Below are positions 25,085 through 45,823 of a DNA stretch of 64,000 nt, in pieces. Both the position numbers and the translations under genes were made by a program. The notes beneath the pieces are model-generated. The model saw only the letters and a program-made list of their open reading frames with translations, was not told the origin of the DNA and did no database searches. How positions within the stretch are numbered: position 1 is the stretch's first letter; each line of letters opens with the position of its first letter. Source of the DNA: Schmidtea nova (taxonomy: Eukaryota); NCBI GenBank assembly GCA_044892505.1, contig CM097882.1, positions 239,382,001-239,446,000 on the forward strand, given 5' to 3'.

Positions 25085-25694
25085 AGTGGATTATAGAGAT
25101 ATCCGGATAAATAGTAACAGAGGGAATATAGACCCATAGTGTAATCGTCGACGAGATTTAGAATAGTGCGCACTAGTAGTTAAGAAATGCGAGTAAAGCT
25201 GATTATGCAACCTTAAGTAAAGCATGCAAGGAGAATAATAAAAATTCGAGCTGACCGGAGCAACCGGCAGAATGAGTAAAACGATTGCTAGCAGGGAATA
25301 ATGAATAAAGATGATAAAATAATGATAAACGAGTCAGAAAGACTCAGGGAATTAGAGCGCTCGAGCGACCAATAAATTGGGAAACTGTGGGAAAAGTAAT
25401 GGATTTGATAAAACATAGATAATTATTACGACATAAATAGATAATTGTGACCAGTCTATAGATAATTTAAATAGACTAAAAATAAAGGGGAATCTGGGAA
25501 TTGGGAAATAATGAAAACCCAGTAATAAGTAATCCCGAAAGAAAGGGAATAAAAGCGCGACGATAACAATAAGGTATCGTTGAGGACCTTTGTATTTTAG
25601 ATATACAAATCAATCAAATCAATCAAGCAACAAGAAGAATCAGAAAAACGATAATAGATAGGACAAGAAAATTGATAATATAAAAGTAATCCAG

Positions 25695-28600
25695 TTGAGA
25701 AAAGGAGCAAAGAGTGTCGCAATAAAGCCAACAAAAAAGCAGAAAGCCGGCAAAGATAACCACAAAAACCCACAAGGGAGTAAAGCGAGGAAAATAATAA
25801 GAGATAAATCAATTATCGAAAACGATAAATTGTCAGTAGTAAGCAACAGCTCAAGTAACAAAGAGAACCAAGCGGAACCCAAGGAGAACCAAACAAGCGA
25901 AATAGAAAGCGACGAAACTATCAACGATAATATCGAAGAAGTAGAAAACGAGGTAGAACCAGAGGTAGAAACCAACGAAAGTGATAACGAAAGTATAATA
26001 TCAGATAACGAAGGAATAAGAGAAACAGAAAGCGATTCAAGCTCGAGTGGAACAGAAGACGAACATAACAACGAACTAGAAACAAGAGGAAACGAAAGTA
26101 AAATAACTCAAGACAGCGGAATTGAAATGGGTGAACCAAGAGAAGAAATAAAGGATAAATTTTCAGGAGAACCGTTTAACGGAGATGCGAGTAAATTGGA
26201 AATTTTTCTAAAGGAATTTGGCATATTCGTGGAAGTATGCAAATGGAAAGCTGAGACAACAGCAAGTAGAATACAGTTATATTTGAAAGATAGTGCATTG
26301 GACCTATATTTGGAAGCGAAAAATGGTACCAATCCACCTACAAGCTGGTCAGCGATAAAGGATTTTTTCCAGCAAACATTTGGAATAAATAAAGTGCTAA
26401 GCGAAGCATTCATAGAATTTTCGATGAGAAAACAAAAGATGAATGAGTCTAACGCGGTATACGCGAGCGAACTGAAAAAATTAGCAAAATCGGTATTCAA
26501 GGATGGGGGTCCAATAAACGAGGAATTAATGGCAGCCATCTTCATAGGAGGATTAAGAAGACCCGACATAAGAGCGCAAGTTGGATGCCAAGGATGCAAA
26601 ACCATAGACCAAGCGTTAGAGACAGCTAACCGATTTGAATTACATATGATAGGAAGCGAGGGTAGAATTTATTTAGCCATGGACACAGCACAAACCGAAC
26701 CAGAGGTAAATCTCAACAATCACATTCCAAATTCGCAACAATTAAACCGACCACCCCCTCAACGAAGGAATGAAGGAAATAAAGTGCAGAACTTTGGAAA
26801 CCAAAACAATTACCACCCTCAAGGACAAACAAAACAATGTAAAACATGCGGGAAGTTGGGACACTGGCAGCAAGAATGCTACCAAAATTTGAATTGCGGA
26901 AAATGTGGAGTTAAAGGACACTCGGAAAGTAGATGTTCTACAATAATCTGTTTTAATTGCGGACGACCTGGTCACTACTCAAGGAATTGCGGACAAAAAG
27001 GTAATCAACGGGGAAATTGGCAGAACAACGGAAACCGACCAAATTACGGAAATCAAACAAATACTGCAAATCGACAAGATTATGGCAACCAACAGGTCAA
27101 TAATAACAATAATCAGAACAAAACTACCACCAAAGAAATACATTTGATGCAAGAAGTTCAAAGATTGACGGAACTTATAAACAATACGACGAGAGGGAAC
27201 CCGCAAACCAATCAACAACAAATTAGCATGATGAGAAAAATAGAAAGCGAAAACGAACGATTGAATCGAGAAAGTCAAGCACGACACGCTCAGGAATGGG
27301 CAAGAATACAAAGAGAGGATGAACAAAAACAGCAAGAAAGAGAACGACAACCTCTAAGAATTAACATGCTAAGAGCAACAAACCAAACAGACACTCGCGA
27401 GAAAGAAACCACACTGGAAATGAATTCGATAGACCCGAATCCAGCCGACAACGAAAGTCGAAAAGAAATAGTACAAAAAGATGAGGAAGTAGAAAAAGAA
27501 GTAGAAAAGGAAGCGGAAACTGAGATAAACCAAGAAGAGAGAAGAAAAATTTGGAAAAAAGGAATGATGGTAATCATGCCCAACGACCATGTGTTTCGAT
27601 TCCAATATAACGCAAAAGAAAAGGTGGAAATACTATTCAATAAAGTAAACCAGATGATTCCAGGAGTAACGAAACTGCCCAGAGAAGCGTTCTTACAAAT
27701 AGGAGATGCACCATCAGTAAAATTGAAATTAACGGATATATGGGAAAACATGGGAGTAACAGAGACAAAAAGAAATGTGATGAGAATCAAAGAAATAGAA
27801 TCAGAAGAAATTCCACCACCAGTGCGTCACGAAACCCGAATCAGCCGAATATTTAAAGGAAAAATGATACGAAGACGTTTGAAAGAAATAGACGAGTTAG
27901 AGAAGAAAATGAGAAAAGTCGAAGTAATAGAGGATAAGAGTGAACCAACACTAGAGATTGCCAAAAACGAACCAGAACCAACGGAGAATATACAAGGGGA
28001 AACGAACCAAATAGCTCATATTAGTATGTTAAGAAATACCACCAGAGAGTTTTCCGATGAAGAAGAAGATAGCGACATCAGTAGCCTAGCAGGAGACATA
28101 TTAAACGAATCCGAAGACGAAAATAAAGAGAGAGAAGTAATAAAGACCTCAGAACCTACACAGATAAAAGTAGATGAAATCCAGAAATTACTAGATAACT
28201 CGTTAGAAGTAATATATAACGAAGAGTTCATGGACAAGAAACAATATCGGAAATTCATGAAAGCATTATTACAAATGAACTACAAAGATTGGTTACAAGA
28301 CCGGGAAGTGGACATGTTAAATCGATACGTAGGGAAATTAATAGAGGAACCACTCCTCAATTACACTATCTCAATAATAATAAATACATCTACACCAAGA
28401 ATCTGGATCAAAACTCCATTTACAGACGATATCTACAGATGGGTAGAGGATAGACTAGGGAGCTCATATAAAAACAAATTCATCTATTCGCAGAATAGAC
28501 TCGTAAAGAAAAGAACGCACTTAGTAGAAACAGGTATATGGCCAGGAGAAATAACTCTGTTATCAATATGTGATGAGAAGGAAGAAGAGAACCTACAAGA

Positions 28601-31600
28601 AGTTGCAAGGGAAGCAAACACGTGCTTTGAAAGGAGAATAAAACCCCGGTTAGAATACGAGAAAGAACGAGTCTTACGAAAGAATCTAAATTCCCTGATA
28701 GAACAAATCATACCACAAGTCAAAAAACATAGAAAAGAGTTAATGAGAAGCGAATACGAGAAACTGAAACGATGTATTGAGTGCATACGTGACACAAGTC
28801 ACACGAGATGGTCACAAATCTCACACGACAAATTAATCGCAAAAATGGGAAAAACAATGTTCAGACAAGGGAAAATAACAGACCTAAAAATTTCAGTGGA
28901 ATTGCCTAATGAAGACACCAAAGAAATTGAAGTAGTAGCGGATTGCACCATTAAAGAATTAATAAATGTCATCAACGAGACACTAGTGCAAAGAGAACCA
29001 GAAGACGAATGGGAAGACGACATAATCATACAATATAACGAACATGTATTATGGGATCACGATGAGAGACGACTATATAAAATCGGTATATGGGATAATC
29101 ACCAAACCATCCACGTTATCAGAATGGACGATACACCCAGAGAAACTGCTAAAGATGAGAAAAGAGAACGGGAACGACGGAAAGAAGTTGTGCGCAAATT
29201 ACAACAAATAGTAGAAATTTATCGAAATTGGCGAATTTGGCCAGAGTGGGAAAATGTATTAGAAGAACTCAATCTCAACAGACGAATACGAACACCCATA
29301 GAAAAACAATGGAACGAGAAAGGAAAATGTTGGGAACCAAAAGAAGGGGAATATGAAGAAGAATATGAAAGAGGAATGGAAGATGACTGCGAACCAGAAA
29401 TGAGAAGGGTTTGCATGGTGACAAGGAAAGCTACGCCAATAGACCTAGATGGACCAGAAACAGCGGCTATATGGGTAGAAAAGGAAAAGCAAAAAACGGA
29501 AGAATTTGTCGAAATATTAAAAACTAATGCGCACGGTAAGAGAAAAATAATAAAAGGTCTCGCAGATTTTTTCGTGGTTAATGGAGAAGATATAACATGC
29601 TTACGCAAAGTAGCAAAAGCAATCGCAGAATATAAAAGAGTCAACGAGTGGTGCCCGGAACAACTAGACCATGTAATTAGGAAATGGAGAAACCAAGAAT
29701 TCTCGCAGGAAATTCCACAGAAAGTGCATTTAAGAATAATATATCCAAACAAGGATAAGGAAGAATTGTGGGTAGGAATAGCAGAAAAAATTCGAGATAT
29801 TAAAAAGAAATTGAGATACGAACCACCATTCCATTTACAACACCAAGGACGATCATTAGATAACAGTTTGGAAATCAGAATAACGCCAGCACAACTAGAT
29901 CTCATGAATACCTTGACAGTAGAAGCAATAGCAGGTCAACCATTGAAACGTAAAGAAGAAAACCATAAACCACACGGAAGTATAAGTACGCCGAGCCCGA
30001 TGAAATCAGTACTAACACCAGGGACAAGTTCAAGACGATCTGAGACAACACCCAGAGGGAATAGAGAAATGACTCCACCACAACCATACGACGTGGACGA
30101 AATTTTAACGGATAGCGACGATATGATAGAAGAATTAACCGAATTAACAAAAGAAAAAGACGATAACATTTTCGAAAGAATACAAGAATTACCTACGACA
30201 ATACAAGTAACCAACACCGGAGAAACAGAAGTCGAAGAAGAAATAATAATAGAAGAAATAAACGATTTGATAGAAGACGAAGCGAGAGGGACGAATGTCG
30301 AAAATGTACAATTAACCCAAGAAATGGAAAGATGGTTAGAAGAAAGAGCTAACGAACCAAGAGATGTCACGGAAGAAACAGGACGAGCAACAAGATTTGT
30401 GGAAACGGTTACAGGAATGGATAGACGACCTCGAGGTAGACCCAAGACAGATCCGGCAAATGTAGTCATCAGAAATAAGGATGAAAAGAGACAAGATCAA
30501 TGGGAAGTATGTTTAAAGAAATTAAATAAAATCGCGGAGATAAAAGAAAAAGAGACAACACCAATATGTCAAGGTGAGGAATGGATATCGAAAACAATAA
30601 TGGAAATATTGGCAATAATTGATCCGGAATTGAAAAAATACTGGCGTATAACTGAGATAAGCGAAAAGGCGAAGTCATTGCACAGCGCAATTGCACCCAT
30701 CTTACCGGAATTCATAAAAGTAAAGACGAAGTCAAATCATTTAGACTGGCAAGGAACCACTACGTTAATAAAGAAATTGACAGAAGGAGCGGAAACAGAT
30801 AACAAATACGTGATAGCCATTGCATACACCATCTACAACCTACTAACACTGAGTAGAGGTCGACCAAAACCCACTGCGTTGGAAAGACACATAAAAAATA
30901 CCGCAAAAATTATAGCCAGAGAAATAGAACCATACATCATTAACAAAGGAGGATGGGAAACATTTATAAAAACTAACCAGAAGAAAACGCAAGCCAAGAA
31001 TATGAAAAAGAAATTCGAAAAAATATTGGAAGAGTTAGAAAAAGAACAAGCAGGAACAGGAAACGCGAAGTCATCAATGAATTTGAGTTCTATAATAATG
31101 ATGATGTTGATATGGATGATTAGCACCGATAGCGCAACAGCATTCGAAGTGTTTGATTGCGACCAAATGAAGTTAGGAGAAAAGTATTCATTGAGAGGTA
31201 CGGAGCAATGCAAAGATGCAACTCCAGTAGAGTTGCAAAAGATTAAAAAGGAACAATGGTACCACGTGTATCAAGAAGCAGAACTCATAAAGACAATGGT
31301 GAATGAATGTAAGGTGCAGAAGACAAGATTCGCATTCTACTGCGGGAGAGGACATTATTCAGCAATTGTCATGCCAGGAACGGAAAGAGAACCAATCGTG
31401 TTACAAGGAGAGGACTGCGAAGCATTGTTTAAACATGGAGAAGTAACAACAAGAGATAAAATCAAGATAAAAGGAAAGCCAGGAATGATGATGCAACAGA
31501 CGTACTATGTAGCAGGACGGATTACGGGAGGAGAAGGATATTGTCAAGGAGAAACCTACCCGATGTTCGGAACACTCGCAACCAACTTAGTGGTGATGGA

Positions 31601-34600
31601 TACGTATATAGTCGAACTAAAAAGCTATGAAGCATTCTTCGAACCCACAACGGGAGAAATGAAAACGTTATCCATGTGTAAAATCGACAGGAGCATGTGT
31701 CAAACGGGAATGTCAACATTAGTGTACAAACCAAAGGTGAACGAATGTCAATTACAACTGCTACAAGGAGCAAAGTTCGACGAAATCCAAGGAAAAACGT
31801 TCCAGGAAGAAGACGATGACGACAAAGCTAGAGCAAAGCATCTCAAGGAAGCTTTAGAGAATAAAAGACAACTGAAACCAGACCATAGAGAAAAACGGAT
31901 AGAGATGAGAGCCACACCAACAGTGTTGATAACCACAAATCAGGATGTGGGAATGAGGTTCATAAAAGGGAAAGCAACCCTTAAGTGTAGTACAACGGTA
32001 TACGAAACGAATTATCCAGGAATATATGTGTCAAAACAAGAAGTGCCAAATGCGAAACCCAAAATCGACACAATGGATATCAAACTACACCTATATGTGA
32101 ATAATAAAATGGATTTCCTATTCCATAGAGGACAAGCCTCATTACAAAAAGTGTACTACGATCTGATAAACAATGATTGTATACTAAATCGAGAAATATT
32201 AAAGACAAAGTTGGCCGTAGCAATTACGAATCCAGACAGCGCGATGCCATTATTACCACTGAGAGAAGGACATTTCGGAAGAGTGGTTGGAGAAGCAATG
32301 TATGTATACATTTGTGAAAAGACACACGCATCGCTAGCAGCAACAACACAGTTGAAACCTGGAACCTGTACAAATGAGTTAGAAATCGACTACAAAGGAA
32401 AAGTACGATACGTTCAACCAGTGACGAGAATCATCAATCCACCAGGGTTTGAACCAAATCCATTCAACTGTAGTAATGCGTATGGACCACTTTATCAGAA
32501 ACCAGATGGTAAATGGGTTATGTTCCCAGGAAGATCCGAAGTGATAGCACCAAGAGAATTCGAGCTAATGCAGTTGTCAAAGGATAGGCAATTCAGCGAC
32601 GTAGATGTCTCAAACAACGGAATATATAGTCCAAAGGATTTAGAAGCAGCAAGGCAGAATATATTATTTCCAGCGAGAAGAGAAGCATTACTGTCAAATA
32701 TCGTAACGATAACGGGAGGAACGGATTATCGAGAAGGACCGAATTATGAACTGTTGTTATCACCAGCACATTTCAAAAAAGCCACGGAAAATATGATGAA
32801 AGCCATGTGGGGAAGATTCCTGATATTTGGACAAATGATGGCGGGAATACTGGGGGTTATATTAATAATACAAATCGTCAGAGTGATAATAACGCAAATG
32901 TTAGCGTGTTTCGATATCTACAAAAGAGAAAAGAGAGTGAATTGGAAAATGGTAGTAGGATTTTTACCATTCCTTGCGAAAACAATGGTGTTGCACGGAC
33001 ACTCAAAAGATATCCATCGAATAAAAAGACTCCTAAAGATACTAGCAAAAATGAAGGGAACAGATGAAGAAGTAGGACGAAAATTTAAAAAGATAATGAA
33101 TGACGAACAAGCAAGACAACAGCTCAAGAGAGAAAGAAAAGGTCTATGGGAGAGGGTGAAAGGATATAAAACCCAAAATGATTCGAGTGACGACGATGAC
33201 GACGATGACGACTATAAGGGAGGACAAGTGTATAAGAACCAAGCACCACAATACATCGAAAAGAATCCAGCCGACGCATGGAAATGTTACGCACCTCCAC
33301 CAACCATGTATCAAGAACCACTACAAGGAGGAAAAAATAGCACGATGCAAATGATGCCAATGACAAATGTATACCCCATGATACCAGAGGATTATAAAAT
33401 GAGAAGATGTAGAAGCGTGGATCCACAAGGAGACACACATACAATCGCCGTAATGTCATCTAACACAGGTCCAGTGTTAACCACAACAATAGAAATTAAC
33501 GGAAGAGAAATCGAAGCAATGATCGACACTGGAGCAAATATTTCCGCCATCGACATCAAATGGATACCACAGGAGCAAAGACGAGAAATAGAAAGGACAA
33601 ACGTCCACGTAATTGCATGTAGCAAGGAAGTTGTAGAAGTAGCAGGAAGATGGTGGGTAAAAATACGCCACTTAAACACAGAAATCGATACCTACGTAGC
33701 AGTTATACCAGCATTAAGCGTGCCTTGCATTATCGGAACAGATTTGATGCCAGCATTATTTAAAGAGATTGTAATCGATCTCGGAACAATGAGACTAAAA
33801 GATCGCACAGGACAAATATGCGCAATAGAAGCCAAGGTGACAAGTTCAAAGCAAATGATAATACCGGCAAGAAAGGAAAAAATATGTTACGTAAAAATAG
33901 ATCCGACAATCCAAGGCGATATGATTTTCGAACCAAGTAAGAGATTCGAGAAAAGAAAAGCGTTGCCAATGGCAAGAGGATTAGTCAACATAAATGATAA
34001 TGGAGAAATCCCAATAAACGTGGTAAATTTCGACGAAGAGGATAAAATAATCTACGAAAACGAAAGATTAGGTAAATTAACCCCAATGATGGATATAGAA
34101 CTACCAATAGCAGGAGCAGAGAAAGATAAAGAACCAACATGGAATATTGATAGTGAATTATTAAATGAGAATCAAAAGAAGCAATTAGAAAAACTGCTGA
34201 CAGAGTATAAGGACATATTTGCAGCATCCGATTTGGATCTAGGAACCTGTGATGTCACGTTACATACGATACCACTAACAGACGAAACACCGATTGCATT
34301 AAGGCCGTACAAATTAGCAGAAGCACAGAAAGCAGTAGCAGAAGCAGAAGTGAAGAAAATGTTGGATGCAGAAGTGATCGAACCAAGTTGTTCACCCTGG
34401 CAATTTCCAGTAGTAATGGTAAAGAAGAAAGACGGAACACAGAGATTCTGCATAGATTATCGAAGATTGAATACAGTGACAAAACGAGATACTTACCCAT
34501 TACCAGACATCAACGAAATGCTACTAACATTACAGGGAGCAGCATATTTTACATCGCTAGATCTGAAAAGCGGATACTGGCAAATAAAAATGAAGGAAGA

Positions 34601-37600
34601 AGATAAAGAGAAAACTGCCTTTACCATCGGTAGAGACCTATATCAATTTCGAAAGATGCCCTTTGGATTAACAAACGCACCAGCATCATTTCAGAGATGC
34701 ATGAATTTCGTCACCCATGGAATAAAGCAGTGTATGGTCTACATCGACGATTTATTAATCTACTCTAGCACGTTTGAACAACACATACAGGATATTCGAG
34801 ATGTATTCGTTAGACTTAGACAATGGAAGTTAAAACTCAAGCCATCCAAGTGTGATTGGGCGAAAGAGAAAGTAACATTTTTAGGACATATAGTGTCAGC
34901 AAAAGGAAAAGAACCGGATCCTAGAAATATCGACAAAGTAAAGGAATGTCCAGTACCAAAAACAATAACCCAGATACAAGAATTTCTTGGATTATGTGGA
35001 TATTATAGAAAGTTTATAAAAGATTACGCCGGAATAGCAAAACCTATACAGGAACTAGTAAAGAAAGATGTATCCTTCATATGGGGAGACGAACAACAAA
35101 CAGCTTTCGAGACATTAAGAGATAAACTGATAACCGCACCCATATTGGTACACCCAGACTTCAAGAAGCCATTCTTACTTGCAACAGACGCAAGCGGATA
35201 TGCAGCAGGAGCAGTATTAGGACAATACGACGATGAAGGAAAAGAACGCGTAATCGGATATTATAGCCGGACATTCAAAAAGCATGAGAAAAATTACTCA
35301 GTAACCGAGCGAGAAGCGTTAGCAATTATACTAGCAATTAAACACTTTAAATATTTATTATGGGGACACATCATCTGTATAACCACAGATTACCAACCGC
35401 TTGTGTGGTTAGGACAACATAAGGAAACCTCCAGTAGATTAATGCGATGGGCAATGCAGCTACAGGAGTACTCACCAGACATAAAATTTAAATCAGGACG
35501 AGCGAATGCGAATGCAGACTGTATGTCCAGACTGACATTTCCGGAATTAACCGACCCGGATGTACAACGAATTTGTGTATTAATAGCAGAAGATTTAGAT
35601 TTTAGTGAGTTAAAGAAAGATCAACAGGAAGACAGAGAGTTAGGACAGATCATAGAGTTCCTAACATCTCGAAATATAGAGGTACTCAAAGATAATAAAG
35701 AATTAAAGGAACATATAGGAAAATATCAACATCGATATATAATAAATAAAGGATGGTTATTGATACAAGACGGTGAAAAGAGGCTGATGTGTTTACCGGA
35801 AAACAGAAGGAAAGAGATAATGATCCAATACCACGATGGGAAATTAGGAGGTCATATGTCAGAGAAAAAGACAATAAATCGGATGAGACAGAAATATTAT
35901 TGGCGAACAATGGAAGAAGATATAAAAGAATGGATTAAAAATTGCCTAACCTGCGCAACTAGAAAGGATAGTGGGAAGAAATGGAAGAACCCGCTACAAC
36001 CAATGCCGATACCAGCAGAGCCAATGACAACTATAGCAATGGACGTAATAGGACCATTACCAGAAAGCTTAAACGGAAACATTTACATACTGGTAATAAC
36101 GGATTACCTGACGAAATTCCCGGAAGCATTTGCCATGCAAGATCAAAAAGCAAAAACCGTAGCAAAAATTCTAGTGGAAGAAATATGCTGCAGATATGGA
36201 ACTCCAAAACAAATACTCACAGACCAAGGAACTAATTTTATGAGTGAGTTATTAGGCGAGGTGACAAACTATTTCAGAATAGCGAAATTGAGAACTTCAC
36301 CATATCATCCACAAACGAATGGTCAAACAGAGCGATTCAATGGCACATTGATTAGAATGTTATCAAACTATGTCAGCAGACACCAAACTGATTGGGACGA
36401 ATACATAAAATTATGTTTAATGGCATACCGAATGTCGATACATGCCGCAACAAAACTAAGCCCGTTTCAACTTATGTATGGCAGAGAATGCAACATGCCC
36501 ATAGATTTGGAGTACCAGCCACCATTATCGCAATATATGGAAGATGACGACTACGTAACCAAATTCAAAGAAAGAATGCAGGAAATATGGAAAACGGCAG
36601 AACTTAACATTAAATTTTATCAGGAAAGTTATAAAGACTTACACGACCAGAAGAAAAATGTTAAAGCGAACGATCTAAAACCAGGAGATTGGGTGATAAT
36701 AGAAACTCCAGAAATAATACCAGGAACGGTTAAGAAACTCCAAAGACCTGGAAGAGGACCTTATGAAATTATATACAAAAAGGACAACAATGTCAAAGTT
36801 AAGCTAATAAATCGACCGTTAATACGACCCATATATGTAAACACCTGCAGATGTAAGAAGGTGCCTAAAACGATAACTACAACACCAGAGAATCGAATAA
36901 TAACCAGATCACAAACAGCCAGGATAAACATGCTCAGAGCAAACACCAGCGAAGACGACAAAACAGAAATAAGGCAAAAAGAAATCAGAAATAAAGAAAT
37001 CCTATTGAAGGCGAGAGAGATAATGGGAAGATGGCATGTTAGAGACGAAGCAGGCATATCAAGGGACATTAGACACATAATTAGCCGTTACGCACAAGGA
37101 TTACCAACCGAACCAATTATTTCTGAATTATTGATAAAAATCCCTGAAATACTCTTATTAAAAGATGTAGGAGGACAACCAGCCTTACATAATGCGATTC
37201 AGTGTAAAAACATTGAAAGAGCAAAAGAATTCTTGAAAATCGCAAAAGATACAAACCAAAACCTAGACGTTGGGAATCGTGAACAGGAAACTCCATTAAT
37301 GACAGCAGCCATCTACCAAGCAGATAAAGAAATGGTAGATCTGTTGATAAAAGCCCGTTTCAGTTGGACAGAACGAGATAGAGAAGATAAAACAGTGCTA
37401 AATCACGCGATATGGAGTTCTCACCAACTTATGTTGGAATATATAATAGCAAACTCCACTTGGGAGATAGACGAACTAGTTAAAGGAGACATTATCAAAG
37501 AGGCAATCAAAATTGGTAAATGCAACACGATCCGTAAGTTAATCAAATGGAAACGACCAGAAGATGATACATGGGTCTTAGACATAAACGAAGTATACAG

Positions 37601-40600
37601 CGAAGGACAAAACGCACTGTTAAGATACCTTTTGAAATTTACTTGTGATCAGAAGACATTACTAACCTTATTAGACAGGGGAAACATAAACATCACAAAA
37701 AATGAAGAAGAACACAAATTCGATAAAGAGAAGGAGGTCTTATTCAACAAAATTAGGAAATGGTGTGCAAAACCACTTGATAAACTAATAACATACAAAG
37801 ACATAAATAATTTTAACGATAAATACCAGACTATAGTAAGTGAGTACGAGGAATTAGTAAAAATCTTAAACCATCCCGAAAAATGCAAACAGGTTTTGGA
37901 GAGAAAAGAAAGAGAAAGTAACAAGAAACTCACACCACTCTTCAAAGCAGAAGCACCATACCAAGCTAGACTAGATGCGATACAAGAAAAAGCAAAGGAG
38001 TTGCTACCGGACTTCGAGAATTGTCAACACGCATTAGAAATACTCGGTGCCTTAGTTGAAAAAGTACACGCGTACGCAAAAGGAACATACAATGGTAACG
38101 ATATAACGACTATAAAAAAAGAAATGCCAGTAACATTTTTACTACCAAAGGACGGAATAATGCCCATACATAGAGCTTTACGAAATGGCAAAGATAGAAA
38201 AGTAATGGAAATTGCACGAATAATGCTAAACTGCGGAAGCAACATGAATATGGTAGACGAGAAAGGAGATACACTCATGATATTTGCAGCAAGGGCCAAA
38301 ACAAAAACAAAAGTGTTGGAAGAACTATACAAAGCAGGTGCAGGACTTACAGGAAAGACAGATAAAGATAATTCAATTTTGGATGTAGCATTACTAACAC
38401 ATAATTGGGAAATGGTCAACTTCATTAAAACAATCTCAAATCAGGAAGAAATAGATTACCTAACTGATACGGTCAGGAAACCCAGTGTACTAGCAATGAT
38501 GAACAACGTCGAACTAACAGAATCAATACTTACGTGGATAAATCCGAATACCAACGAACCAGCATTCAAGATTAATGAGTTTACAGAACATAACCAAAAC
38601 TGGTGTATAAGAAGTGCCCTAATAACATATAAATGGCCAGAGATATTGAAGATGTTTATGGAAAGAAAGGATCTAAGAGTCACAAACAACCCGAGAGAGG
38701 GAAAATACACAGGCAAATGGAAAGAATTAATGAGGACATACATCAACAATTGGATCAAGGCCAAAAAGGAAATCTTAGAATATAAATCCACTAACAAAAT
38801 AATACCGGAGCAGATAGAAACACAAGAATTTGAGGCAAGTAATCTAACGACATTAGCATACGCAAAATTGATAGAAGAAATCAATGTCGAGGACGACATT
38901 TTCGACGAGCCAGGGGGAGATGACAACACAGATAGTGACGACGGTAACAACTCAGAAAATTCAAGCGATCACGAACCACCCGATAAAGAGGAAAACGAGA
39001 GAAAAGACAAGAAACGAGACAAGGAAGGAAAGAAAGGTGAAGACGAAAAACAAAGAGATGAAGAGAGAGAACAAGGAACAAACGACCAAGGAGATAAAAA
39101 TGACACCCAAAGAACAGGTTATAAATCAACCATAAAACCATTCTTCAAACCAGAATTACTATTACTAACAATGATTATAACGTTAATTAATCCAAGTCAA
39201 GGAATGACATGTGAAGAAAGGGCAATAATACAAATAAAAAACGCAAAAGGAATCGAACGAGTATGTTGGTCAAAAAAGGACAAAATCACGGAACAAAATA
39301 GCCCGATGGATTGCAGAATCTCAAAACACGAGCAAGAAATCATAGAGATCAACGACCTGGATCTAAATACCTGGTACAAAATATGCACCGTTAGAAAACA
39401 AAAGCATCCAAGATCACACAACAAAATCGCATGTGCAAAATACCAAACACCTAAAGCAGCCATGACAATACAACAGTCACCCAAAGGAGATTACATCATC
39501 GGAAAATGTGGAAGGACAGAGACACAGGGAACAGAAAACAAAAAACCCCAGGCAACAGATAAGCAAACAACACCAACCCTACGAATTACAATAGAGAGGC
39601 CTGAAGCAAGAGTTGCCACAAACGAAACCGAAAGAGTGTCCTACCAAATGGAAGTATTATGTTTAGCACTCATACTAATAATGATAAAACGATTAGAGGA
39701 AGGGATAGAAATTGAAACTATGACAATAACAGAAGTAGAAGATACACAGAATACTAACATAAAATGTTGGGCGAGAAATAACGAGGAAATCGGCGTAAAC
39801 GAAATAAGGAAAAGTCGAAAACCAACAACGAATAAAGTAATTAAAATATCCGAAGTAAAAGCAGATAAGACGTACAAACTATGCCTACTAGAAAAAGAAA
39901 CGAACAAGAAAGGTACCACAAAATGTAAAACATTTCAACCTGGAGAGGTAATAAAGTTCAGAAGGAGAACGAGGAAGAGAAATAAACAAATCAAGCGGAA
40001 AGTAAACATAACATTAGAAATAAAAGAGATAGAACCAAATGTGAAAGGAGTATGCTGGAGGAAGTACGAAAAAGAAGTAAATAAAAGAACGACACCACAT
40101 TGTCGAACAAACACAGGAACAACGACGATTCAAATAAAAGGTTTAGAAAGTAAACAAACCTACGAAATATGTTTGGTAAAGAAAAATGATCAGATAACGA
40201 TAAACGACCTAGAATGCGGAATATATACAACGTCATCCGGAACAAGAACCAAAACGTTAACACGGAAAAATAAAAGGAAACAACGAAACAAAGGAAAACC
40301 GAAGTACACCACTACCTTTAAAAACAATAAACAACCAACAAACCAAGAAGTTACGACGAAACCCGAGAGAAAAACATCAGCAACTCTAACATTATGGAAA
40401 ATAGAGAATAAAACATTAGAAATATGTTGGATAATAGTACAGAAACATATAAGAAGACAATCAAGAGAATGCAGAAAAACAAATAAAGAAATCAAGATCG
40501 AAAAACTACAATTTAATAGCGAGTACGAAGTATACGCAATAGAAATAATGGACGCACTAAGAAACCAACAAGAAAGATGCGAAACCTACTATACACCAGT

Positions 40601-42611
40601 AAACGCGACATCAAAAGGAATAACAAGGAAACTCGAATTCAGGGAACTAAGCCAAACGAATGAACAAATGGACGCAGAAAAAATAATAATCGACCCTCAA
40701 GCAAAATGGACACCCGAAGAAGTTATCAAAGAAGTCAAAAGAAAGCAAGAGGAACGAGAACAATTAATGAGAAAACTAAAAGGACAATACGGAATAATGT
40801 TCAACCAAAGCAAATCTATACAAACAGACGAGAATAAACAAATCAAAGAATTAATTGGCTTAGGAATATTAACAGCGACCATACCCGTAATAATCGCGTT
40901 ATCAGCTATATGGATACGCAAGATAAACCCAAGGAAATCGGCAACCCAATGGCCAAATATAGACAATACAAGCCATGGAGTTGAAATACTGGAAGAAAAC
41001 GCACGAGAAGAACCAAAACCGACCAGGAATAAGAAAGAAGCAAAAATCGCAAAACTAGGAATGAACAACAAAGACAAGGAAATAAAAGAGATTAAAGGAG
41101 AAGAGAAAAAATATGAAAGGCGAACCAGAAGCCTACCGCAGAGTTCAAAATGGTTGGGTCTAACAATAATATTGACATTAATCAATGGGGAAGAAGCAAT
41201 AAACCCACAGACAGGGATAAAAATAATAAATGTCCAGGAAGTCGAGAAAATATGTTGGTATAGAGAAGATGAACCAATTGGAGAAAATAACCCACTAAAA
41301 TGCATAATCCGAAAATCCGACCAGGATATAATACGAATAGAAGAAATGGATGGAGGGACCATGCATCGGATATGCATAATAGAAAAGGAAAAGAAGTCGG
41401 GGCTACCTAAGACAGTCGTATGCCAAAAATATGAAACGCCTAGACTTGAATGGTATAGAGTAAAACCAACAAAGAAAGAAATCAAAAACACAATAGATCA
41501 ACCAGCAACTCAGATGAAAAACACAACGGACAAACCAGGAGAAGGGGAGAGAAGCACAAATAACACGAGAGAAGAAGTATCACCCCAACAAGATTTCGTA
41601 TGCATAGCGTTAATAATAGCAATGTCCAAACGTATCGATAAAGGAATAAGAATAGAACAAATGGCTATGACAATAAGGAGAAAAAACCAAAGTAACAAAA
41701 TATGCTGGGTATGGTACAACGAACCAAGAGAATACCAAGTTCAGACAAGCGACGAATCACGAACAAACAAGGAAATCGAAATACAAGAAATACAAATGAA
41801 TGAAGAAGGAAGTATATGTATATGGGAGAAAGGAACCCAAGAAGATCAACCCGGAATAGAAAATTGCAAGACATTCCAAAAAGGAGAAACTCTGAAATTC
41901 GATGAAGAAGAACTAACTAAAACAGAAAGAACTCTGACATTAACAGGACTCGATCAGACAGTTAAAGTAATATGTTGGACAAAACATAAACCAGAAGTGG
42001 AAGAAGACAACCTAACCCACTGTAAAGAAATAAAGAATAAAGAAAAAGTCGAATTAAAGAAAATGGAAGTAAATAGGACATACGCGATATGTACCTTCAC
42101 CAGAAAAGGTTCAGAAAAACCAGAATGCGGATTATATCAGATCTCAGAGAAACTATCACAACAGACCGAACCAGGAGGCGTAGAAAACCAGACGACGAAA
42201 AATGACGTCAAACAACTACTAAACCGCCATTGGTCTACCCAAGAAGTAATGAACAAAGTCAAGAGTCAAATACCAAAAGAGAAGAAGCCAGAGGCTCAAA
42301 CCCAAAATGAGATAAAAGCGAACCAGAATAAAAGAGAAACAAACAGTGGAAAAACAATAATAGGATTAATGAGTATAGGAATATTAATAGCATATGGAAT
42401 ACTGACGACAAGCATAATAGTATATTGGAGATACAGAAAGAGAAACAAAGCGACAGCCATACAATGGCCAGATATTAAAATCATGAAACTAGGAATAGAA
42501 ATACCAGAGGAGATACAGAAAGAATTTCAAAGAAGAACGAAAGGTAAAGAATTCTGGAAACAAATAGAAGATGAAGAACGATACGAAGAAAAGACGATAA
42601 TGATGGTATAG
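25695..42611 (+). CDS. 5638-aa polyprotein: Gag - Ubl x4 - Bcl-2-like - Env-like glycoprotein - PR - RT - RNase H - IN - ANK - FN3-like/TM modules
   Basis: Uninterrupted ORF; the track start is TTG and the first in-frame ATG is at 26127. Motifs: 3 CCHC knuckles (26838-26990), DTG (33525), YIDD (34740), RNase H DAS (35187), HHCC (35832-35954), DDE core, GPY (36756). Confidence 0.95.
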   Translation: MRKGAKSVAIKPTKKQKAGKDNHKNPQGSKARKIIRDKSIIENDKLSVVSNSSSNKENQAEPKENQTSEIESDETINDNIEEVENEVEPEVETNESDNESIISDNEGIRETESDSSSSGTEDEHNNELETRGNESKITQDSGIEMGEPREEIKDKFSGEPFNGDASKLEIFLKEFGIFVEVCKWKAETTASRIQLYLKDSALDLYLEAKNGTNPPTSWSAIKDFFQQTFGINKVLSEAFIEFSMRKQKMNESNAVYASELKKLAKSVFKDGGPINEELMAAIFIGGLRRPDIRAQVGCQGCKTIDQALETANRFELHMIGSEGRIYLAMDTAQTEPEVNLNNHIPNSQQLNRPPPQRRNEGNKVQNFGNQNNYHPQGQTKQCKTCGKLGHWQQECYQNLNCGKCGVKGHSESRCSTIICFNCGRPGHYSRNCGQKGNQRGNWQNNGNRPNYGNQTNTANRQDYGNQQVNNNNNQNKTTTKEIHLMQEVQRLTELINNTTRGNPQTNQQQISMMRKIESENERLNRESQARHAQEWARIQREDEQKQQERERQPLRINMLRATNQTDTREKETTLEMNSIDPNPADNESRKEIVQKDEEVEKEVEKEAETEINQEERRKIWKKGMMVIMPNDHVFRFQYNAKEKVEILFNKVNQMIPGVTKLPREAFLQIGDAPSVKLKLTDIWENMGVTETKRNVMRIKEIESEEIPPPVRHETRISRIFKGKMIRRRLKEIDELEKKMRKVEVIEDKSEPTLEIAKNEPEPTENIQGETNQIAHISMLRNTTREFSDEEEDSDISSLAGDILNESEDENKEREVIKTSEPTQIKVDEIQKLLDNSLEVIYNEEFMDKKQYRKFMKALLQMNYKDWLQDREVDMLNRYVGKLIEEPLLNYTISIIINTSTPRIWIKTPFTDDIYRWVEDRLGSSYKNKFIYSQNRLVKKRTHLVETGIWPGEITLLSICDEKEEENLQEVAREANTCFERRIKPRLEYEKERVLRKNLNSLIEQIIPQVKKHRKELMRSEYEKLKRCIECIRDTSHTRWSQISHDKLIAKMGKTMFRQGKITDLKISVELPNEDTKEIEVVADCTIKELINVINETLVQREPEDEWEDDIIIQYNEHVLWDHDERRLYKIGIWDNHQTIHVIRMDDTPRETAKDEKRERERRKEVVRKLQQIVEIYRNWRIWPEWENVLEELNLNRRIRTPIEKQWNEKGKCWEPKEGEYEEEYERGMEDDCEPEMRRVCMVTRKATPIDLDGPETAAIWVEKEKQKTEEFVEILKTNAHGKRKIIKGLADFFVVNGEDITCLRKVAKAIAEYKRVNEWCPEQLDHVIRKWRNQEFSQEIPQKVHLRIIYPNKDKEELWVGIAEKIRDIKKKLRYEPPFHLQHQGRSLDNSLEIRITPAQLDLMNTLTVEAIAGQPLKRKEENHKPHGSISTPSPMKSVLTPGTSSRRSETTPRGNREMTPPQPYDVDEILTDSDDMIEELTELTKEKDDNIFERIQELPTTIQVTNTGETEVEEEIIIEEINDLIEDEARGTNVENVQLTQEMERWLEERANEPRDVTEETGRATRFVETVTGMDRRPRGRPKTDPANVVIRNKDEKRQDQWEVCLKKLNKIAEIKEKETTPICQGEEWISKTIMEILAIIDPELKKYWRITEISEKAKSLHSAIAPILPEFIKVKTKSNHLDWQGTTTLIKKLTEGAETDNKYVIAIAYTIYNLLTLSRGRPKPTALERHIKNTAKIIAREIEPYIINKGGWETFIKTNQKKTQAKNMKKKFEKILEELEKEQAGTGNAKSSMNLSSIIMMMLIWMISTDSATAFEVFDCDQMKLGEKYSLRGTEQCKDATPVELQKIKKEQWYHVYQEAELIKTMVNECKVQKTRFAFYCGRGHYSAIVMPGTEREPIVLQGEDCEALFKHGEVTTRDKIKIKGKPGMMMQQTYYVAGRITGGEGYCQGETYPMFGTLATNLVVMDTYIVELKSYEAFFEPTTGEMKTLSMCKIDRSMCQTGMSTLVYKPKVNECQLQLLQGAKFDEIQGKTFQEEDDDDKARAKHLKEALENKRQLKPDHREKRIEMRATPTVLITTNQDVGMRFIKGKATLKCSTTVYETNYPGIYVSKQEVPNAKPKIDTMDIKLHLYVNNKMDFLFHRGQASLQKVYYDLINNDCILNREILKTKLAVAITNPDSAMPLLPLREGHFGRVVGEAMYVYICEKTHASLAATTQLKPGTCTNELEIDYKGKVRYVQPVTRIINPPGFEPNPFNCSNAYGPLYQKPDGKWVMFPGRSEVIAPREFELMQLSKDRQFSDVDVSNNGIYSPKDLEAARQNILFPARREALLSNIVTITGGTDYREGPNYELLLSPAHFKKATENMMKAMWGRFLIFGQMMAGILGVILIIQIVRVIITQMLACFDIYKREKRVNWKMVVGFLPFLAKTMVLHGHSKDIHRIKRLLKILAKMKGTDEEVGRKFKKIMNDEQARQQLKRERKGLWERVKGYKTQNDSSDDDDDDDDYKGGQVYKNQAPQYIEKNPADAWKCYAPPPTMYQEPLQGGKNSTMQMMPMTNVYPMIPEDYKMRRCRSVDPQGDTHTIAVMSSNTGPVLTTTIEINGREIEAMIDTGANISAIDIKWIPQEQRREIERTNVHVIACSKEVVEVAGRWWVKIRHLNTEIDTYVAVIPALSVPCIIGTDLMPALFKEIVIDLGTMRLKDRTGQICAIEAKVTSSKQMIIPARKEKICYVKIDPTIQGDMIFEPSKRFEKRKALPMARGLVNINDNGEIPINVVNFDEEDKIIYENERLGKLTPMMDIELPIAGAEKDKEPTWNIDSELLNENQKKQLEKLLTEYKDIFAASDLDLGTCDVTLHTIPLTDETPIALRPYKLAEAQKAVAEAEVKKMLDAEVIEPSCSPWQFPVVMVKKKDGTQRFCIDYRRLNTVTKRDTYPLPDINEMLLTLQGAAYFTSLDLKSGYWQIKMKEEDKEKTAFTIGRDLYQFRKMPFGLTNAPASFQRCMNFVTHGIKQCMVYIDDLLIYSSTFEQHIQDIRDVFVRLRQWKLKLKPSKCDWAKEKVTFLGHIVSAKGKEPDPRNIDKVKECPVPKTITQIQEFLGLCGYYRKFIKDYAGIAKPIQELVKKDVSFIWGDEQQTAFETLRDKLITAPILVHPDFKKPFLLATDASGYAAGAVLGQYDDEGKERVIGYYSRTFKKHEKNYSVTEREALAIILAIKHFKYLLWGHIICITTDYQPLVWLGQHKETSSRLMRWAMQLQEYSPDIKFKSGRANANADCMSRLTFPELTDPDVQRICVLIAEDLDFSELKKDQQEDRELGQIIEFLTSRNIEVLKDNKELKEHIGKYQHRYIINKGWLLIQDGEKRLMCLPENRRKEIMIQYHDGKLGGHMSEKKTINRMRQKYYWRTMEEDIKEWIKNCLTCATRKDSGKKWKNPLQPMPIPAEPMTTIAMDVIGPLPESLNGNIYILVITDYLTKFPEAFAMQDQKAKTVAKILVEEICCRYGTPKQILTDQGTNFMSELLGEVTNYFRIAKLRTSPYHPQTNGQTERFNGTLIRMLSNYVSRHQTDWDEYIKLCLMAYRMSIHAATKLSPFQLMYGRECNMPIDLEYQPPLSQYMEDDDYVTKFKERMQEIWKTAELNIKFYQESYKDLHDQKKNVKANDLKPGDWVIIETPEIIPGTVKKLQRPGRGPYEIIYKKDNNVKVKLINRPLIRPIYVNTCRCKKVPKTITTTPENRIITRSQTARINMLRANTSEDDKTEIRQKEIRNKEILLKAREIMGRWHVRDEAGISRDIRHIISRYAQGLPTEPIISELLIKIPEILLLKDVGGQPALHNAIQCKNIERAKEFLKIAKDTNQNLDVGNREQETPLMTAAIYQADKEMVDLLIKARFSWTERDREDKTVLNHAIWSSHQLMLEYIIANSTWEIDELVKGDIIKEAIKIGKCNTIRKLIKWKRPEDDTWVLDINEVYSEGQNALLRYLLKFTCDQKTLLTLLDRGNINITKNEEEHKFDKEKEVLFNKIRKWCAKPLDKLITYKDINNFNDKYQTIVSEYEELVKILNHPEKCKQVLERKERESNKKLTPLFKAEAPYQARLDAIQEKAKELLPDFENCQHALEILGALVEKVHAYAKGTYNGNDITTIKKEMPVTFLLPKDGIMPIHRALRNGKDRKVMEIARIMLNCGSNMNMVDEKGDTLMIFAARAKTKTKVLEELYKAGAGLTGKTDKDNSILDVALLTHNWEMVNFIKTISNQEEIDYLTDTVRKPSVLAMMNNVELTESILTWINPNTNEPAFKINEFTEHNQNWCIRSALITYKWPEILKMFMERKDLRVTNNPREGKYTGKWKELMRTYINNWIKAKKEILEYKSTNKIIPEQIETQEFEASNLTTLAYAKLIEEINVEDDIFDEPGGDDNTDSDDGNNSENSSDHEPPDKEENERKDKKRDKEGKKGEDEKQRDEEREQGTNDQGDKNDTQRTGYKSTIKPFFKPELLLLTMIITLINPSQGMTCEERAIIQIKNAKGIERVCWSKKDKITEQNSPMDCRISKHEQEIIEINDLDLNTWYKICTVRKQKHPRSHNKIACAKYQTPKAAMTIQQSPKGDYIIGKCGRTETQGTENKKPQATDKQTTPTLRITIERPEARVATNETERVSYQMEVLCLALILIMIKRLEEGIEIETMTITEVEDTQNTNIKCWARNNEEIGVNEIRKSRKPTTNKVIKISEVKADKTYKLCLLEKETNKKGTTKCKTFQPGEVIKFRRRTRKRNKQIKRKVNITLEIKEIEPNVKGVCWRKYEKEVNKRTTPHCRTNTGTTTIQIKGLESKQTYEICLVKKNDQITINDLECGIYTTSSGTRTKTLTRKNKRKQRNKGKPKYTTTFKNNKQPTNQEVTTKPERKTSATLTLWKIENKTLEICWIIVQKHIRRQSRECRKTNKEIKIEKLQFNSEYEVYAIEIMDALRNQQERCETYYTPVNATSKGITRKLEFRELSQTNEQMDAEKIIIDPQAKWTPEEVIKEVKRKQEEREQLMRKLKGQYGIMFNQSKSIQTDENKQIKELIGLGILTATIPVIIALSAIWIRKINPRKSATQWPNIDNTSHGVEILEENAREEPKPTRNKKEAKIAKLGMNNKDKEIKEIKGEEKKYERRTRSLPQSSKWLGLTIILTLINGEEAINPQTGIKIINVQEVEKICWYREDEPIGENNPLKCIIRKSDQDIIRIEEMDGGTMHRICIIEKEKKSGLPKTVVCQKYETPRLEWYRVKPTKKEIKNTIDQPATQMKNTTDKPGEGERSTNNTREEVSPQQDFVCIALIIAMSKRIDKGIRIEQMAMTIRRKNQSNKICWVWYNEPREYQVQTSDESRTNKEIEIQEIQMNEEGSICIWEKGTQEDQPGIENCKTFQKGETLKFDEEELTKTERTLTLTGLDQTVKVICWTKHKPEVEEDNLTHCKEIKNKEKVELKKMEVNRTYAICTFTRKGSEKPECGLYQISEKLSQQTEPGGVENQTTKNDVKQLLNRHWSTQEVMNKVKSQIPKEKKPEAQTQNEIKANQNKRETNSGKTIIGLMSIGILIAYGILTTSIIVYWRYRKRNKATAIQWPDIKIMKLGIEIPEEIQKEFQRRTKGKEFWKQIEDEERYEEKTIMMV
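26127..26990 (+). CDS. gag: Gag (capsid-like region + three CCHC zinc knuckles), part of polyprotein
   Basis: FNGDASKLEIFLKEF...W capsid-type start; CKTCGKLGHWQQEC, CGKCGVKGHSESRC, CFNCGRPGHYSRNC. Confidence 0.92.
27564..29927 (+). CDS. Region with up to four ubiquitin-like (beta-grasp) domains, part of polyprotein
   Basis: Best copy 28884-29123 (LKISVELPNEDTKEIEVVADCTIKELINVIN...IQYNEHVL...RRLYKIGIWDNHQTIHVI) follows the ubiquitin pattern; weaker copies at 27564-27791, 28362-28571 and 29721-29927. Confidence 0.5.
30495..30971 (+). CDS. Bcl-2-like helical domain, part of polyprotein
   Basis: BH2-like IEPYIINKGGWETFIK (compare WIxxxGGWxxF) ending a ~160-aa helical segment; BH1 is degenerate. 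Confidence 0.6.
31077..32912 (+). CDS. env: Envelope-like fusion glycoprotein (chuvirus-G / class III-like), part of polyprotein
   Basis: Signal-like MNLSSIIMMMLIWMISTDSATA|FEVFDC; Cys pattern ECKV..RFAFYCG; YVNNKMDF...LQKVYYDLINNDCILNREIL..LAVA..P..A...GHFGRVVGEAMYVYIC...CTNEL; TM at 32817-32912. Confidence 0.75.
33444..33800 (+). CDS. Retropepsin aspartic protease, part of polyprotein
   Basis: IEINGREIEAMIDTGANISAI ... CIIGTDLM; boundaries approximate. Confidence 0.93.
34140..35530 (+). CDS. pol: Reverse transcriptase + RNase H, part of polyprotein
   Basis: SPWQFPVVMVKKKDG, RFCIDYRRLN, LDLKSGYWQI, MPFGLTNAPASFQ, YIDD, FLGH; LATDASG, YSVTEREALA; boundaries approximate. Confidence 0.97.
35790..36870 (+). 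CDS. Integrase (HHCC, DDE, GPY/F), part of polyprotein
   Basis: YHDGKLGGH...CLTC; AMDVIGPLP; LTDQGTNF; YHPQTNGQTERFN; GRGPYEI; boundaries approximate. Confidence 0.96.
37170..38430 (+). CDS. Two clusters of ankyrin repeats downstream of integrase, part of polyprotein
   Basis: GQPALHNAI, ETPLMTAA, KTVLNHAI (37170-37450); GIMPIHRAL, GDTLMIFAA, NSILDVAL (38151-38430). Confidence 0.8.
39156..42480 (+). CDS. Two tandem membrane-protein modules: signal + 4 or 3 Cys-containing FN3-like repeats + TM, part of polyprotein
   Basis: Signals LLLLTMIITLINPSQG (39156) and WLGLTIILTLINGEEA (41151); repeats with CW...I.I..L...Y.IC...C..Y/F; TMs at ~40851-40917 and 42357-42428. The repeats are clear; the FN3 fold is inferred. 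Confidence 0.55.
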
Positions 42612-43095: not shown

Positions 43096-43192
43096 ATAAA
43101 TAAAGCGAAAAAAAAAAACTGTAAATATGTAAAAATAAAAACAAGAAAACCAAAAATAAATGACAGGTCGAATGTATATATTATTGTAGAAA

Positions 43193-44569
43193 ATGGACCG
43201 AGATGAACGGGTAATCGAAATCTTGAGATTAGAAAACAGAAAATGGAGCAAGAGGCTCACATGCGGAAAATGTAATAATTTATTGCGAGAACCCAGACAA
43301 ACGATATGTGGATGTAGAATATGTACAAAATGTATACAAGAATTAGATGCAACAGGAATAACAACATGCCCAGAATGTAAGGAAGGAAGAATAGTGTTGG
43401 ATGAAACCAGAATGGACAAAGCAACCCAAAGAGAAATTATGAGCACCACAACGGAGTGCGTAAATACACCTTGTACATGGCAAGGACAAATAAGTAATCT
43501 GGAAAACCATATGGAAAAATGCGAGGAAAAGAGAGCCGAATGCGAGAAATGCCAACAGACAATAACTCTAAAGAAGAGAGAACAACACAAGGAAGAATGT
43601 AAAGAAGAAGAAATCGCATGCGAGTATTGTGAAACTCGAGAAACAAGGAGAAAAATCGAAGAAGAACACTTAAATATAACAGAGGAGAAAGTATGCAGAC
43701 AATATGTAAGCAAATGTCCAAACAATTGCGAAATAACAGAAGAAATAAAGTTACATGAACATTGGAAAATATGTACCGAAAGGCCAAGAGAATGTCCATA
43801 TAACAAGCATGGATGCAAGGAAAAGCGGACGCGAAAAACAATGAAACAACACTTGGAAGAAGCAGCACTAACGCATGTGGAAATGACAAACGAAACGACA
43901 AAAGAAACAGAACAGACAGTCCAGAAATTAGAAAAAGAAGTAGAATCACATAAGATAATGATGAGTTTACTACTAGAAACAAGAGAGCAGTTTGAACTAA
44001 CTCGCGAAAGAATGGAAAAGAAAATAATAGCCATAGAAGAATTAGGAAAAGGAATGAAAATACAATATAATCAACTAATACGAGAAATTGACGAAAGAAG
44101 GGACTTACCAATCGCACCTTACCTATGGAAAGTAACAGATTTCAGAGACAAACTAGCAGAAGCCAGAAATATGACGAAAACAGCAGTAATAAGCCCACCA
44201 TTTTATTTATGGAAAAATGGGGTTAAAATAAGATTGAAGGTCTACCCAAATGGAGACGGAAGAGGACAAGGAACACACGTATCAATATTCTTCTCGTTAT
44301 GTAAAGGAGAATACGATGACCTAATAGAATGGCCCTTGAAAGTAGGAGTCATTATAAGAATCAAAAGTATAGGAAAACCAGTAGAAAAGTTCTTTGAAAC
44401 AGACAAACATACGAGTACAAGCGAAAAACCAACAACAGAATGCGGACTAGCAGCAGGAGAACCAATGTTTATAAGGAAAGAAAACCTATGGGAGCGACTA
44501 TATGCAGACACGCTATACATAGAGATGGAGAGGCATGAGAAAACGGATAGAAAAGGATGGTTGGCGTAA
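43193..44569 (+). CDS. TRAF: TNF receptor-associated factor homolog (RING - Zn fingers - coiled coil - MATH), intronless
   Basis: RING CGKC..LLREPRQTICGCRICTKC...CPEC (43262-43378); TRAF Zn fingers; MATH YLWKVTDF...SPPFY...IRLKVYPNGDGRGQGTHVSIFFSLCKGEYDDLIEWP. Confidence 0.93.
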   Translation: MDRDERVIEILRLENRKWSKRLTCGKCNNLLREPRQTICGCRICTKCIQELDATGITTCPECKEGRIVLDETRMDKATQREIMSTTTECVNTPCTWQGQISNLENHMEKCEEKRAECEKCQQTITLKKREQHKEECKEEEIACEYCETRETRRKIEEEHLNITEEKVCRQYVSKCPNNCEITEEIKLHEHWKICTERPRECPYNKHGCKEKRTRKTMKQHLEEAALTHVEMTNETTKETEQTVQKLEKEVESHKIMMSLLLETREQFELTRERMEKKIIAIEELGKGMKIQYNQLIREIDERRDLPIAPYLWKVTDFRDKLAEARNMTKTAVISPPFYLWKNGVKIRLKVYPNGDGRGQGTHVSIFFSLCKGEYDDLIEWPLKVGVIIRIKSIGKPVEKFFETDKHTSTSEKPTTECGLAAGEPMFIRKENLWERLYADTLYIEMERHEKTDRKGWLA

Positions 44570-44683
44570 TGAAGGAAGTAACCATGTAAATAAACTGTAT
44601 AAAACAATATGAAATAACAAATAATCAAAAACAATAAAAATAAAAAAACTGATTAAATATTCTTTTTATCTGTAATTATAGAA

Positions 44684-45745: not shown

Positions 45746-45823
45746 ATGAGCGGAAACCAATTGTAAATAGATGATGTAAAATAAAAAGCGTCAAGCTGTA
45801 TTGACTCCTATGTAAAGATAGAA

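Follow-up and report, generated by a model that had tools for sequence, protein, structure and literature searches.

The window analyzed here, a 64,000-nucleotide stretch of the Schmidtea nova assembly GCA_044892505.1 (contig CM097882.1, positions 239,382,001 to 239,446,000, forward strand), contains a 29.3-kb Gypsy-type LTR element (20340-49670) arranged like the Burro elements of planarians. Coordinates below are those of the window, and features lie on the + strand unless stated otherwise. The 5' LTR (20340..23405, 3.07 kb, TG...CA) and the 3' LTR (46602..49670) are 99.8% identical, and a 4-bp target-site duplication, AATC, is found on both sides of the element. The two LTRs with their duplication and the order Gag then PR-RT-RH-IN are traits of Gypsy/Metaviridae, an order that Bel/Pao shares. 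Directly 3' of the 5' LTR lies a primer-binding-site-like sequence (23412..23429), which may resemble tRNA-Pro. Each LTR contains two ORFs, of 169 and 223 aa (window 21629-22913), the leader holds a 32-nt tandem array (24902-25097), and an acceptor-like site is present at 25600, upstream of the main ORF.

Four accessory ORFs accompany the main one. Upstream is an ORF with a C3HC4 RING (23752..24288; PF13920, E 4e-11); downstream are a TRAF-like ORF (43190..44569; RING, zf-TRAF, and MATH), a coiled-coil-like ORF with a weak PF00038 match (44657..45745), and an ORF with signal-like and TM-like segments of its own (45785..46384).

Positions 1-16827 match 20136-36964 at 99.98% identity and form a tandem partial copy of the element with its left flank; two mismatches and two single-base gaps that break the ORF distinguish this copy, which terminates at an N stretch and is either a recent duplication or an assembly duplicate. 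The left arm of a large palindrome (49671-61666; 19933-20339 / 61663-62062) also encloses the element; the arms, 97-99% complementary, measure at least 6.3 kb and flank a spacer of 137 nt. The palindrome is possibly a foldback-type element. Farther right, an ORF on the minus strand (62300-63304) is related to an accessory exonuclease ORF (PF00929) of the relative L001 (22% identity, E 2e-13); its acidic catalytic motif appears altered, and the ORF could be part of a different element of this clade.

Domains of the giant ORF

The initial annotation described one polyprotein, and the reading frame bears this out: a single stop-free ORF spans 25662..42611, 5,649 aa from stop to stop, with its first Met at 26127. 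Since 32 of 126 scored genomic matches (hand count) lie in open frames of 5,641-5,736 aa, the long ORF is not the chance product of one copy. We found no 2A-like motif in the ORF, which is A-rich and contains 13 slippery-type heptamers.

Most of the domain labels given initially are upheld. Pfam confirms Gag, CCHC, Env, PR, RT, RH, IN, and ankyrin in the ORF, as well as RING and TRAF in the accessory ORFs. Gag (26127..26990) comprises a capsid-like region and three CCHC knuckles and is predicted to be cytosolic, as is the block of PR, RT, RNase H, and integrase zinc finger and core (33483..36311). An ankyrin-repeat region follows (37170..38500, end approximate; PF12796 in three stretches, E 7e-16). 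The Bcl-2 label has weak backing: the candidate domain (30540..30998) has a BH2-like GGW motif at its end, some 40 aa upstream of the Env signal, and a four-sequence profile matches Bcl-2/Bcl-xL in 58 of its best 60 matches, at E 0.003-0.03. The GGW motif lies about 30-60 aa upstream of that signal in the window, P0008, L001, and L002 and is absent from the six other relatives scanned. The Ubl label is unconfirmed, as the candidate stretches had no Pfam or PDB match, and a dUTPase-like motif fared likewise. No BIR domain was matched in the 12 stretches of larger ORFs scanned with Pfam, though the element does have a RING ORF.

Env and its flanking segments

The annotation listed six hydrophobic segments, at 31077, 32817, 39156, 40851, 41151, and 42357, and two extra stretches; all eight are in frame at those positions. 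The first, SP1 (31077..31142, or from 31083), is predicted to be an internal signal peptide, and an A-T-A cleavage motif precedes the start of mature Env. The ectodomain (31143..32816) is a Monjiviricetes fusion glycoprotein (PF24664, E 8e-73) in which 14 of 14 Cys are invariant across all nine sequences aligned, and the membrane anchor TM1 (32817..32891) aligns in the same nine. In P0002, P0003, P0005, P0007, P0008, P0009, L001, and L003 the PF24664 model begins (positions 4-8) at SP1 and extends through the anchor region; for P0005 this describes the better match, the second of two stretches. A sequence-based search with Env matched no solved structure, and the window Env has one N-glycosylation sequon. 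Twenty amino acids past the anchor is a Lys-bounded hydrophobic 10-mer (32949..32978), overlooked in the initial annotation and kept in 9/9 homologues, that is probably interfacial and too short for a membrane span.

The nearest Met lies 39-149 aa upstream of SP1 in five of nine sequences. It is at or within 5 aa of the SP1 core in the window, P0003, and P0004 and 15 aa upstream in P0005. Because five of the nine homologues have no Met near the signal, SP1 is likely to be internal, judging from sequence. Two relatives depart from the common arrangement: L003 has an extra hydrophobic stretch directly upstream of SP1, and in L002 Gag-Bcl-2 and signal-Env are two ORFs, divided by a single stop (3058-3060) that marks either a broken copy or a read-through site.

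The post-ankyrin tail

Downstream of the ankyrin region, the tail carries two modules of FN3-like repeats, each with a leading signal-like segment and an anchor. SP2, a predicted internal signal peptide (39156..39203), has an S-Q-G cleavage motif and is preceded by 142 aa without Met. It leads into module A, with four repeats (39204..40601), and the anchor TM2 (40851..40916), with basic residues on its C side. Module B, with three repeats (41199..42152), duplicates module A in tandem (31% identity, E 3e-37) and is anchored by TM3 (42354..42428, or from 42357), after which comes a 60-aa tail that is basic at its start. Its own signal-like segment, SP3 (41151..41198), has strong positive charge on the N side and lacks a canonical cleavage site. 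SP3, whose uncharged run is 12-13 residues and whose best cleavage site has Glu at -3, is the weakest of the six segments; its c-region contains a basic residue in 18/18 fully covered copies, and it may stay uncleaved.

The two extra stretches are int1 (39654..39686, VLCLALILIM from 39654) and int2 (41595..41627, FVCIALIIAM from 41595), each an 11-residue signal-like stretch followed by KR. Both align in register with SP2 and SP3, as paralogues, and the duplicated unit was therefore a signal plus an FN3 repeat. A Met sits 2 residues upstream of int1. Among the covered genomic copies, int1 is hydrophobic in all 19 and int2 in all 18, and KR comes after int1 in all 19 and after int2 in 17 of 18. 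The annotation had cautioned that these stretches could complicate the topology, and the caution was justified: none of the 37 covered instances has lost its hydrophobicity, and the charges around int2 are those of a stop-transfer.

That the first tail repeat, a1, folds as FN3 is supported by an AlphaFold model (pLDDT 87.5), the top structural matches of which are FN3 and monobody folds (TM ~0.6, best E 0.017), and six of seven matches in a repeat profile search are FN3. The other six repeats are assigned as FN3-like by alignment to one another only. A single-sequence model of module A is of low confidence (pLDDT 45.8), and its FN3 matches, like the FN3 likeness of a tail repeat in an Atlas search, serve as leads. 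The window tail had no homologue in two large protein searches (50% representatives; shorter proteins).

Conservation of the tail was gauged from 20 other genomic copies, 92-97% identical, which are not independent and include post-insertion changes, so that pN/pS is a crude measure here. It is 0.2-0.65 in the FN3 repeats (mostly 0.2-0.6 over the tail; 0.2-0.35 in four of the seven repeats), 0.02 in TM2, and about 1 in TM3, int2, and stalk b. In open-frame copies, indels keep the frame. One genomic copy, L011, has an in-frame 723-nt deletion that takes out int1 and two FN3 repeats.

Evidence for membrane topology

Hydrophobic segments are more frequent in the protein than its composition predicts. 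Windows of 11 aa with a Kyte-Doolittle value of at least 2.3 number nine, compared with a shuffle mean of 2.6 (2 of 1,000 shuffles reach nine), and the post-ankyrin tail has six, compared with a mean of 0.29 (0 of 1,000 reach six). An objective hydrophobicity rule missed the window SP3, which falls just under it, TM1 of P0002, P0003, and L003, SP1 of L001, and the last anchor of P0007, and it also picked up one protease strand. Because it missed several real segments, we assigned segments by alignments and a looser scan.

Flanking charge and cysteine content are consistent with the predicted sidedness. The charge difference, C minus N, is -3 for SP1, -4 for SP2, -6 for SP3, +4 for TM2, and +2 for TM3, all of which fit the predicted topology; TM1 (-1) and int1 are neutral, and int2 is +3, the stop-transfer pattern noted above. 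Cys is enriched in the predicted luminal parts of four of four proteins (Fisher p 0.003, 0.001, 0.023, and 0.002). N-glycosylation sequons failed as a topology marker in the window, where they are not enriched in predicted luminal parts (12/83 Asn versus 26/227, p 0.56); the second ectodomain of P0002 has 12 sequons versus 4.4 expected.

The annotation had placed Gag, Ubl, Bcl-2, PR-RT-IN-ANK, and the tails in the cytosol and Env and the FN3 arrays in the lumen. On the basis of homology, charge asymmetry, and the pairing of signal and anchor segments in relatives, the core of this order is supported: Gag would be cytosolic, Env luminal, and PR-RT-IN-ANK cytosolic, followed by at least one anchored luminal FN3 ectodomain. 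In the tail the order is weak, at SP3, int1, and int2.

A motif, I[NS]M[LM]R, occurs at ORF aa 521, 567, 787, and 3755, after the zinc knuckles and after the integrase. Its four copies exceed the shuffle maximum of one, and we offer it, as a guess, as a candidate protease site. All four lie in predicted cytosolic parts, unsurprisingly, because those parts make up 72% of the protein. A looser pattern, derived from the protein itself, had 10 of 11 matches in cytosolic parts (p about 0.15, by hand) and did not carry over to relatives, and we discarded it.

Relatives of the element

To ask how general the layout is, we compared seven relatives with an ORF continuing past IN, whose RTs are 49-63% identical to that of the window; L002, P0005, P0006, and P0008, in which the ORF does not reach IN, were excluded, and L004 was dropped as having no ORF of 200 aa. 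A cassette of signal, ectodomain, and anchor follows the integrase in six of the seven, though the sequences are barely alignable, and in P0009 the ORF ends without one. The six represent about five lineages, as P0002 and P0004 are close kin. In P0007 a Met lies 2 aa upstream of the post-IN signal. No relative was found in IMG/VR.

L001 (2-10279) has an additional full signal-ectodomain-anchor cassette, inserted after its second protease and ahead of the protease-RT block. Because the additional cassette is complete, the number of crossings before RT is even and RT is kept on the Gag side, and this cassette is the best single argument from sequence that the segments would work as pairs. Its ectodomain weakly resembles the post-IN ectodomains of other relatives (E ~1e-3). 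Three aspartic-protease domains per ORF are present in P0002, P0003, P0004, P0007, P0008, P0009, and L001, and one in the window element; in P0002, P0003, P0004, P0007, and P0009 one of them follows the integrase, in four of these shortly upstream of the second signal.

Proposed mechanism

From the ORF, its domain order, its segments, and their paired conservation in relatives, all of which were observed directly, we judge it probable that the ORF is made as a multi-pass ER polyprotein. Host signal peptidase is predicted to cut on the luminal side and the element protease on the cytosolic side. Gag through Bcl-2 would fold in the cytosol, after which the ribosome would dock at the ER translocon through SP1. 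Signal peptidase would then cut before mature Env, and the Gag/Bcl-2 part would keep SP1 as an anchor at its C-terminus; host Bcl-2 proteins carry a tail anchor at the position that this remnant would occupy. TM1 would halt transfer, so that PR-RT-RH-IN-ANK would hang in the cytosol from the Env tail. These three steps are well supported, and the following two are less so. SP2-FN3x4-TM2 and SP3-FN3x3-TM3 would each become a surface module of type-I-like topology, with SP3 possibly left uncut, and int1 and int2 would most likely enter the lumen as remnants of the duplicated signal plus FN3 unit. If signal peptidase splits Gag from Pol at once, Pol would therefore not be packaged as Gag-Pol; a predicted consequence is that it would be held at the membrane and packaged on the Env tail.

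The weakest part of this scheme is the threading of the tail, and a different path with the core intact is conceivable, if rather unlikely in our estimation. In it, int1 and/or int2 would be stop-transfers, a role they could play, or back-up signals, SP3 would not be used as drawn, and some FN3 repeats would be cytosolic or of mixed topology. In favor of it, int1 and int2 keep register with SP2 and SP3, are equally hydrophobic (KD11 3.6 and 2.9), and retain the following KR almost throughout the covered copies; int1 is modelled, at low confidence, as a helix; and SP3 is short, with its Glu at -3. Against it, retention among copies that are 3-8% diverged is weak evidence of function, and int2 has a pN/pS of about 1. 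The uncharged runs of int1 and int2 span just 11 residues, compared with 15-28 for most signals and anchors, and the Cys pattern is the same in repeats before and after them. If all six tail segments were used in alternation, moreover, paralogous repeats would end up on opposite sides of the membrane, and TM2 (+4 on the C side) and SP3 (+5 on the N side) would be oriented against their charges, which is why we favor luminal passage of int1 and int2.

The full chain might instead be minor or absent, with Env and the tail modules translated mainly from RNAs of their own, spliced or subgenomic, so that each product would begin with its signal. Retroviruses and errantiviruses as a rule express env from a spliced RNA, the Met residues near SP1 in the window and two relatives, near int1, and near the post-IN signal of P0007 would allow separate translation starts, and the stop in L002 lies upstream of SP1. 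However, Met is not near SP1 in the other five sequences noted above, nor near SP2 or SP3, and a crude scan of 23401-42611 gave four pyrimidine-rich acceptor-like sites; the 2.5 kb ahead of each of SP1, SP2, and SP3 contains none. No stop follows Env, so that even an env RNA would read into Pol, and only by splicing Env out could an RNA that encodes Gag and Pol in frame avoid SP1 and TM1. We regard such a division of labor among RNAs as improbable. Poorer still are the prospects of a tail that is mere passenger sequence, held open by the youth of the copies and with hydrophobic segments of no function, a reading to which we give very little credence: the lack of homologues of the tail in the two protein searches and a pN/pS near 1 in TM3, int2, and stalk b point that way, and the low values in four FN3 repeats and TM2, the frame-keeping indels, and the recurrence of the cassette layout in six of seven relatives point against it.

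Setting these alternatives beside the multi-pass polyprotein that we prefer, a broader and more speculative picture can be drawn, which may hold but which we would not yet expect to hold in full. The element would belong to a widespread, enveloped Gypsy-type clade with inverted retroviral assembly, in which signal peptidase would cut Gag away from Pol while the chain is still being made, Pol would enter particles as the cytosolic tail of Env, and the Env signal would also serve a captured Bcl-2 as its tail anchor. The polyprotein would grow by taking in ready-made signal-FN3-anchor cassettes, which would display receptors of host-like type at the surface of cells or particles.

Comparison with known systems

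LTR elements normally package Pol by Gag fusion and make Env from a separate RNA. With Env placed between Gag and Pol, the growing chain has to pass into the ER and out again, Gag is parted from Pol early, and Gag, Env, and Pol are equimolar unless otherwise regulated. Foamy viruses likewise do not deliver Pol as a Gag-Pol fusion, and their Env is central to assembly, but their Pol comes from its own spliced RNA, whereas here it would be cotranslated and tethered to the Env tail.

The strategy would resemble that of the structural polyproteins of flaviviruses, hepatitis C virus (HCV), and alphaviruses, in which capsid, internal signal, glycoprotein, and anchor follow one another, the capsid keeps the signal as an anchor, and signal peptidase and viral protease share the processing. 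Pairing of signals and anchors, with the enzymes on the predicted cytosolic side, is seen in the window and in relatives, including the added pair of L001, with P0009, L002, and L003 as exceptions; candidate signal peptidase sites with small residues of canonical type are present at SP1 and SP2, not SP3. The differences are that these are unrelated RNA viruses, and that the element has a glycoprotein of the PF24664 family and a long, predicted cytosolic Pol block with luminal modules on either side of it.

Among LTR elements, some Bel/Pao members have env in frame with gag-pol, which calls for one ER entry and does not require the chain to come back into the cytosol ahead of RT. Viral glycoproteins have been captured by Anakin, where the Env is chuvirus-like, and by other Bel/Pao elements with env, and in these Env lies downstream of Pol (PMC7642597, PMC8742986).

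The nearest relatives by design are Burro/GYPSM1, giant Gypsy elements of planarians for which the available text of a 2019 report describes an in-frame env between gag and pol (PMC6431247). The initial annotation knew of no such strategy among LTR retroelements; that claim of novelty was overstated, because the in-frame Env was already known from Burro and is not new here, although that text discusses neither topology nor FN3 modules. As described there (PMC6431247), Burro elements are about 30 kb, with long LTRs and one ORF of about 5,000 aa encoding Gag-CCHC, a BCL2-like domain, an in-frame mononegavirus-like Env before PR-RT-RH-IN, and ankyrin, with MATH/TRAF in frame or accessory; in its available text we find no mention of signal peptides, anchors, topology, or FN3 modules. 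The element described here has the corresponding length of 29.3 kb, the 5,649-aa ORF, Env between the weakly matched BCL2-like domain and PR, ankyrin, and MATH/TRAF. It differs in that TRAF is a downstream accessory ORF, the BIR of Burro1 was not detected, and the ORF adds two signal-FN3-anchor modules. We infer from layout, rather than from sequence comparison with named Burro families, that the element is a Burro member.

Full-text searches of the LTR-element literature found no description of a threading topology, internal signals, or FN3 modules, and planarian genome, Repbase, and 2026 Burro1 annotations may already mark the segments. Three things appear to be new: the multi-pass interpretation, the FN3 modules, and the paired cassettes of distant relatives. 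The modules point to an element-encoded family of FN3 surface proteins for which that search gave no description. Burro has been reported to help planarian stem cells survive, according to a citing paper (PMC13465017). The presence of relatives with 49-63% identical RT in metagenome assemblies makes the design older and wider than one family. If the multi-pass polyprotein is correct, it provides a testable assembly route for retroelements and a fresh reading of Burro.
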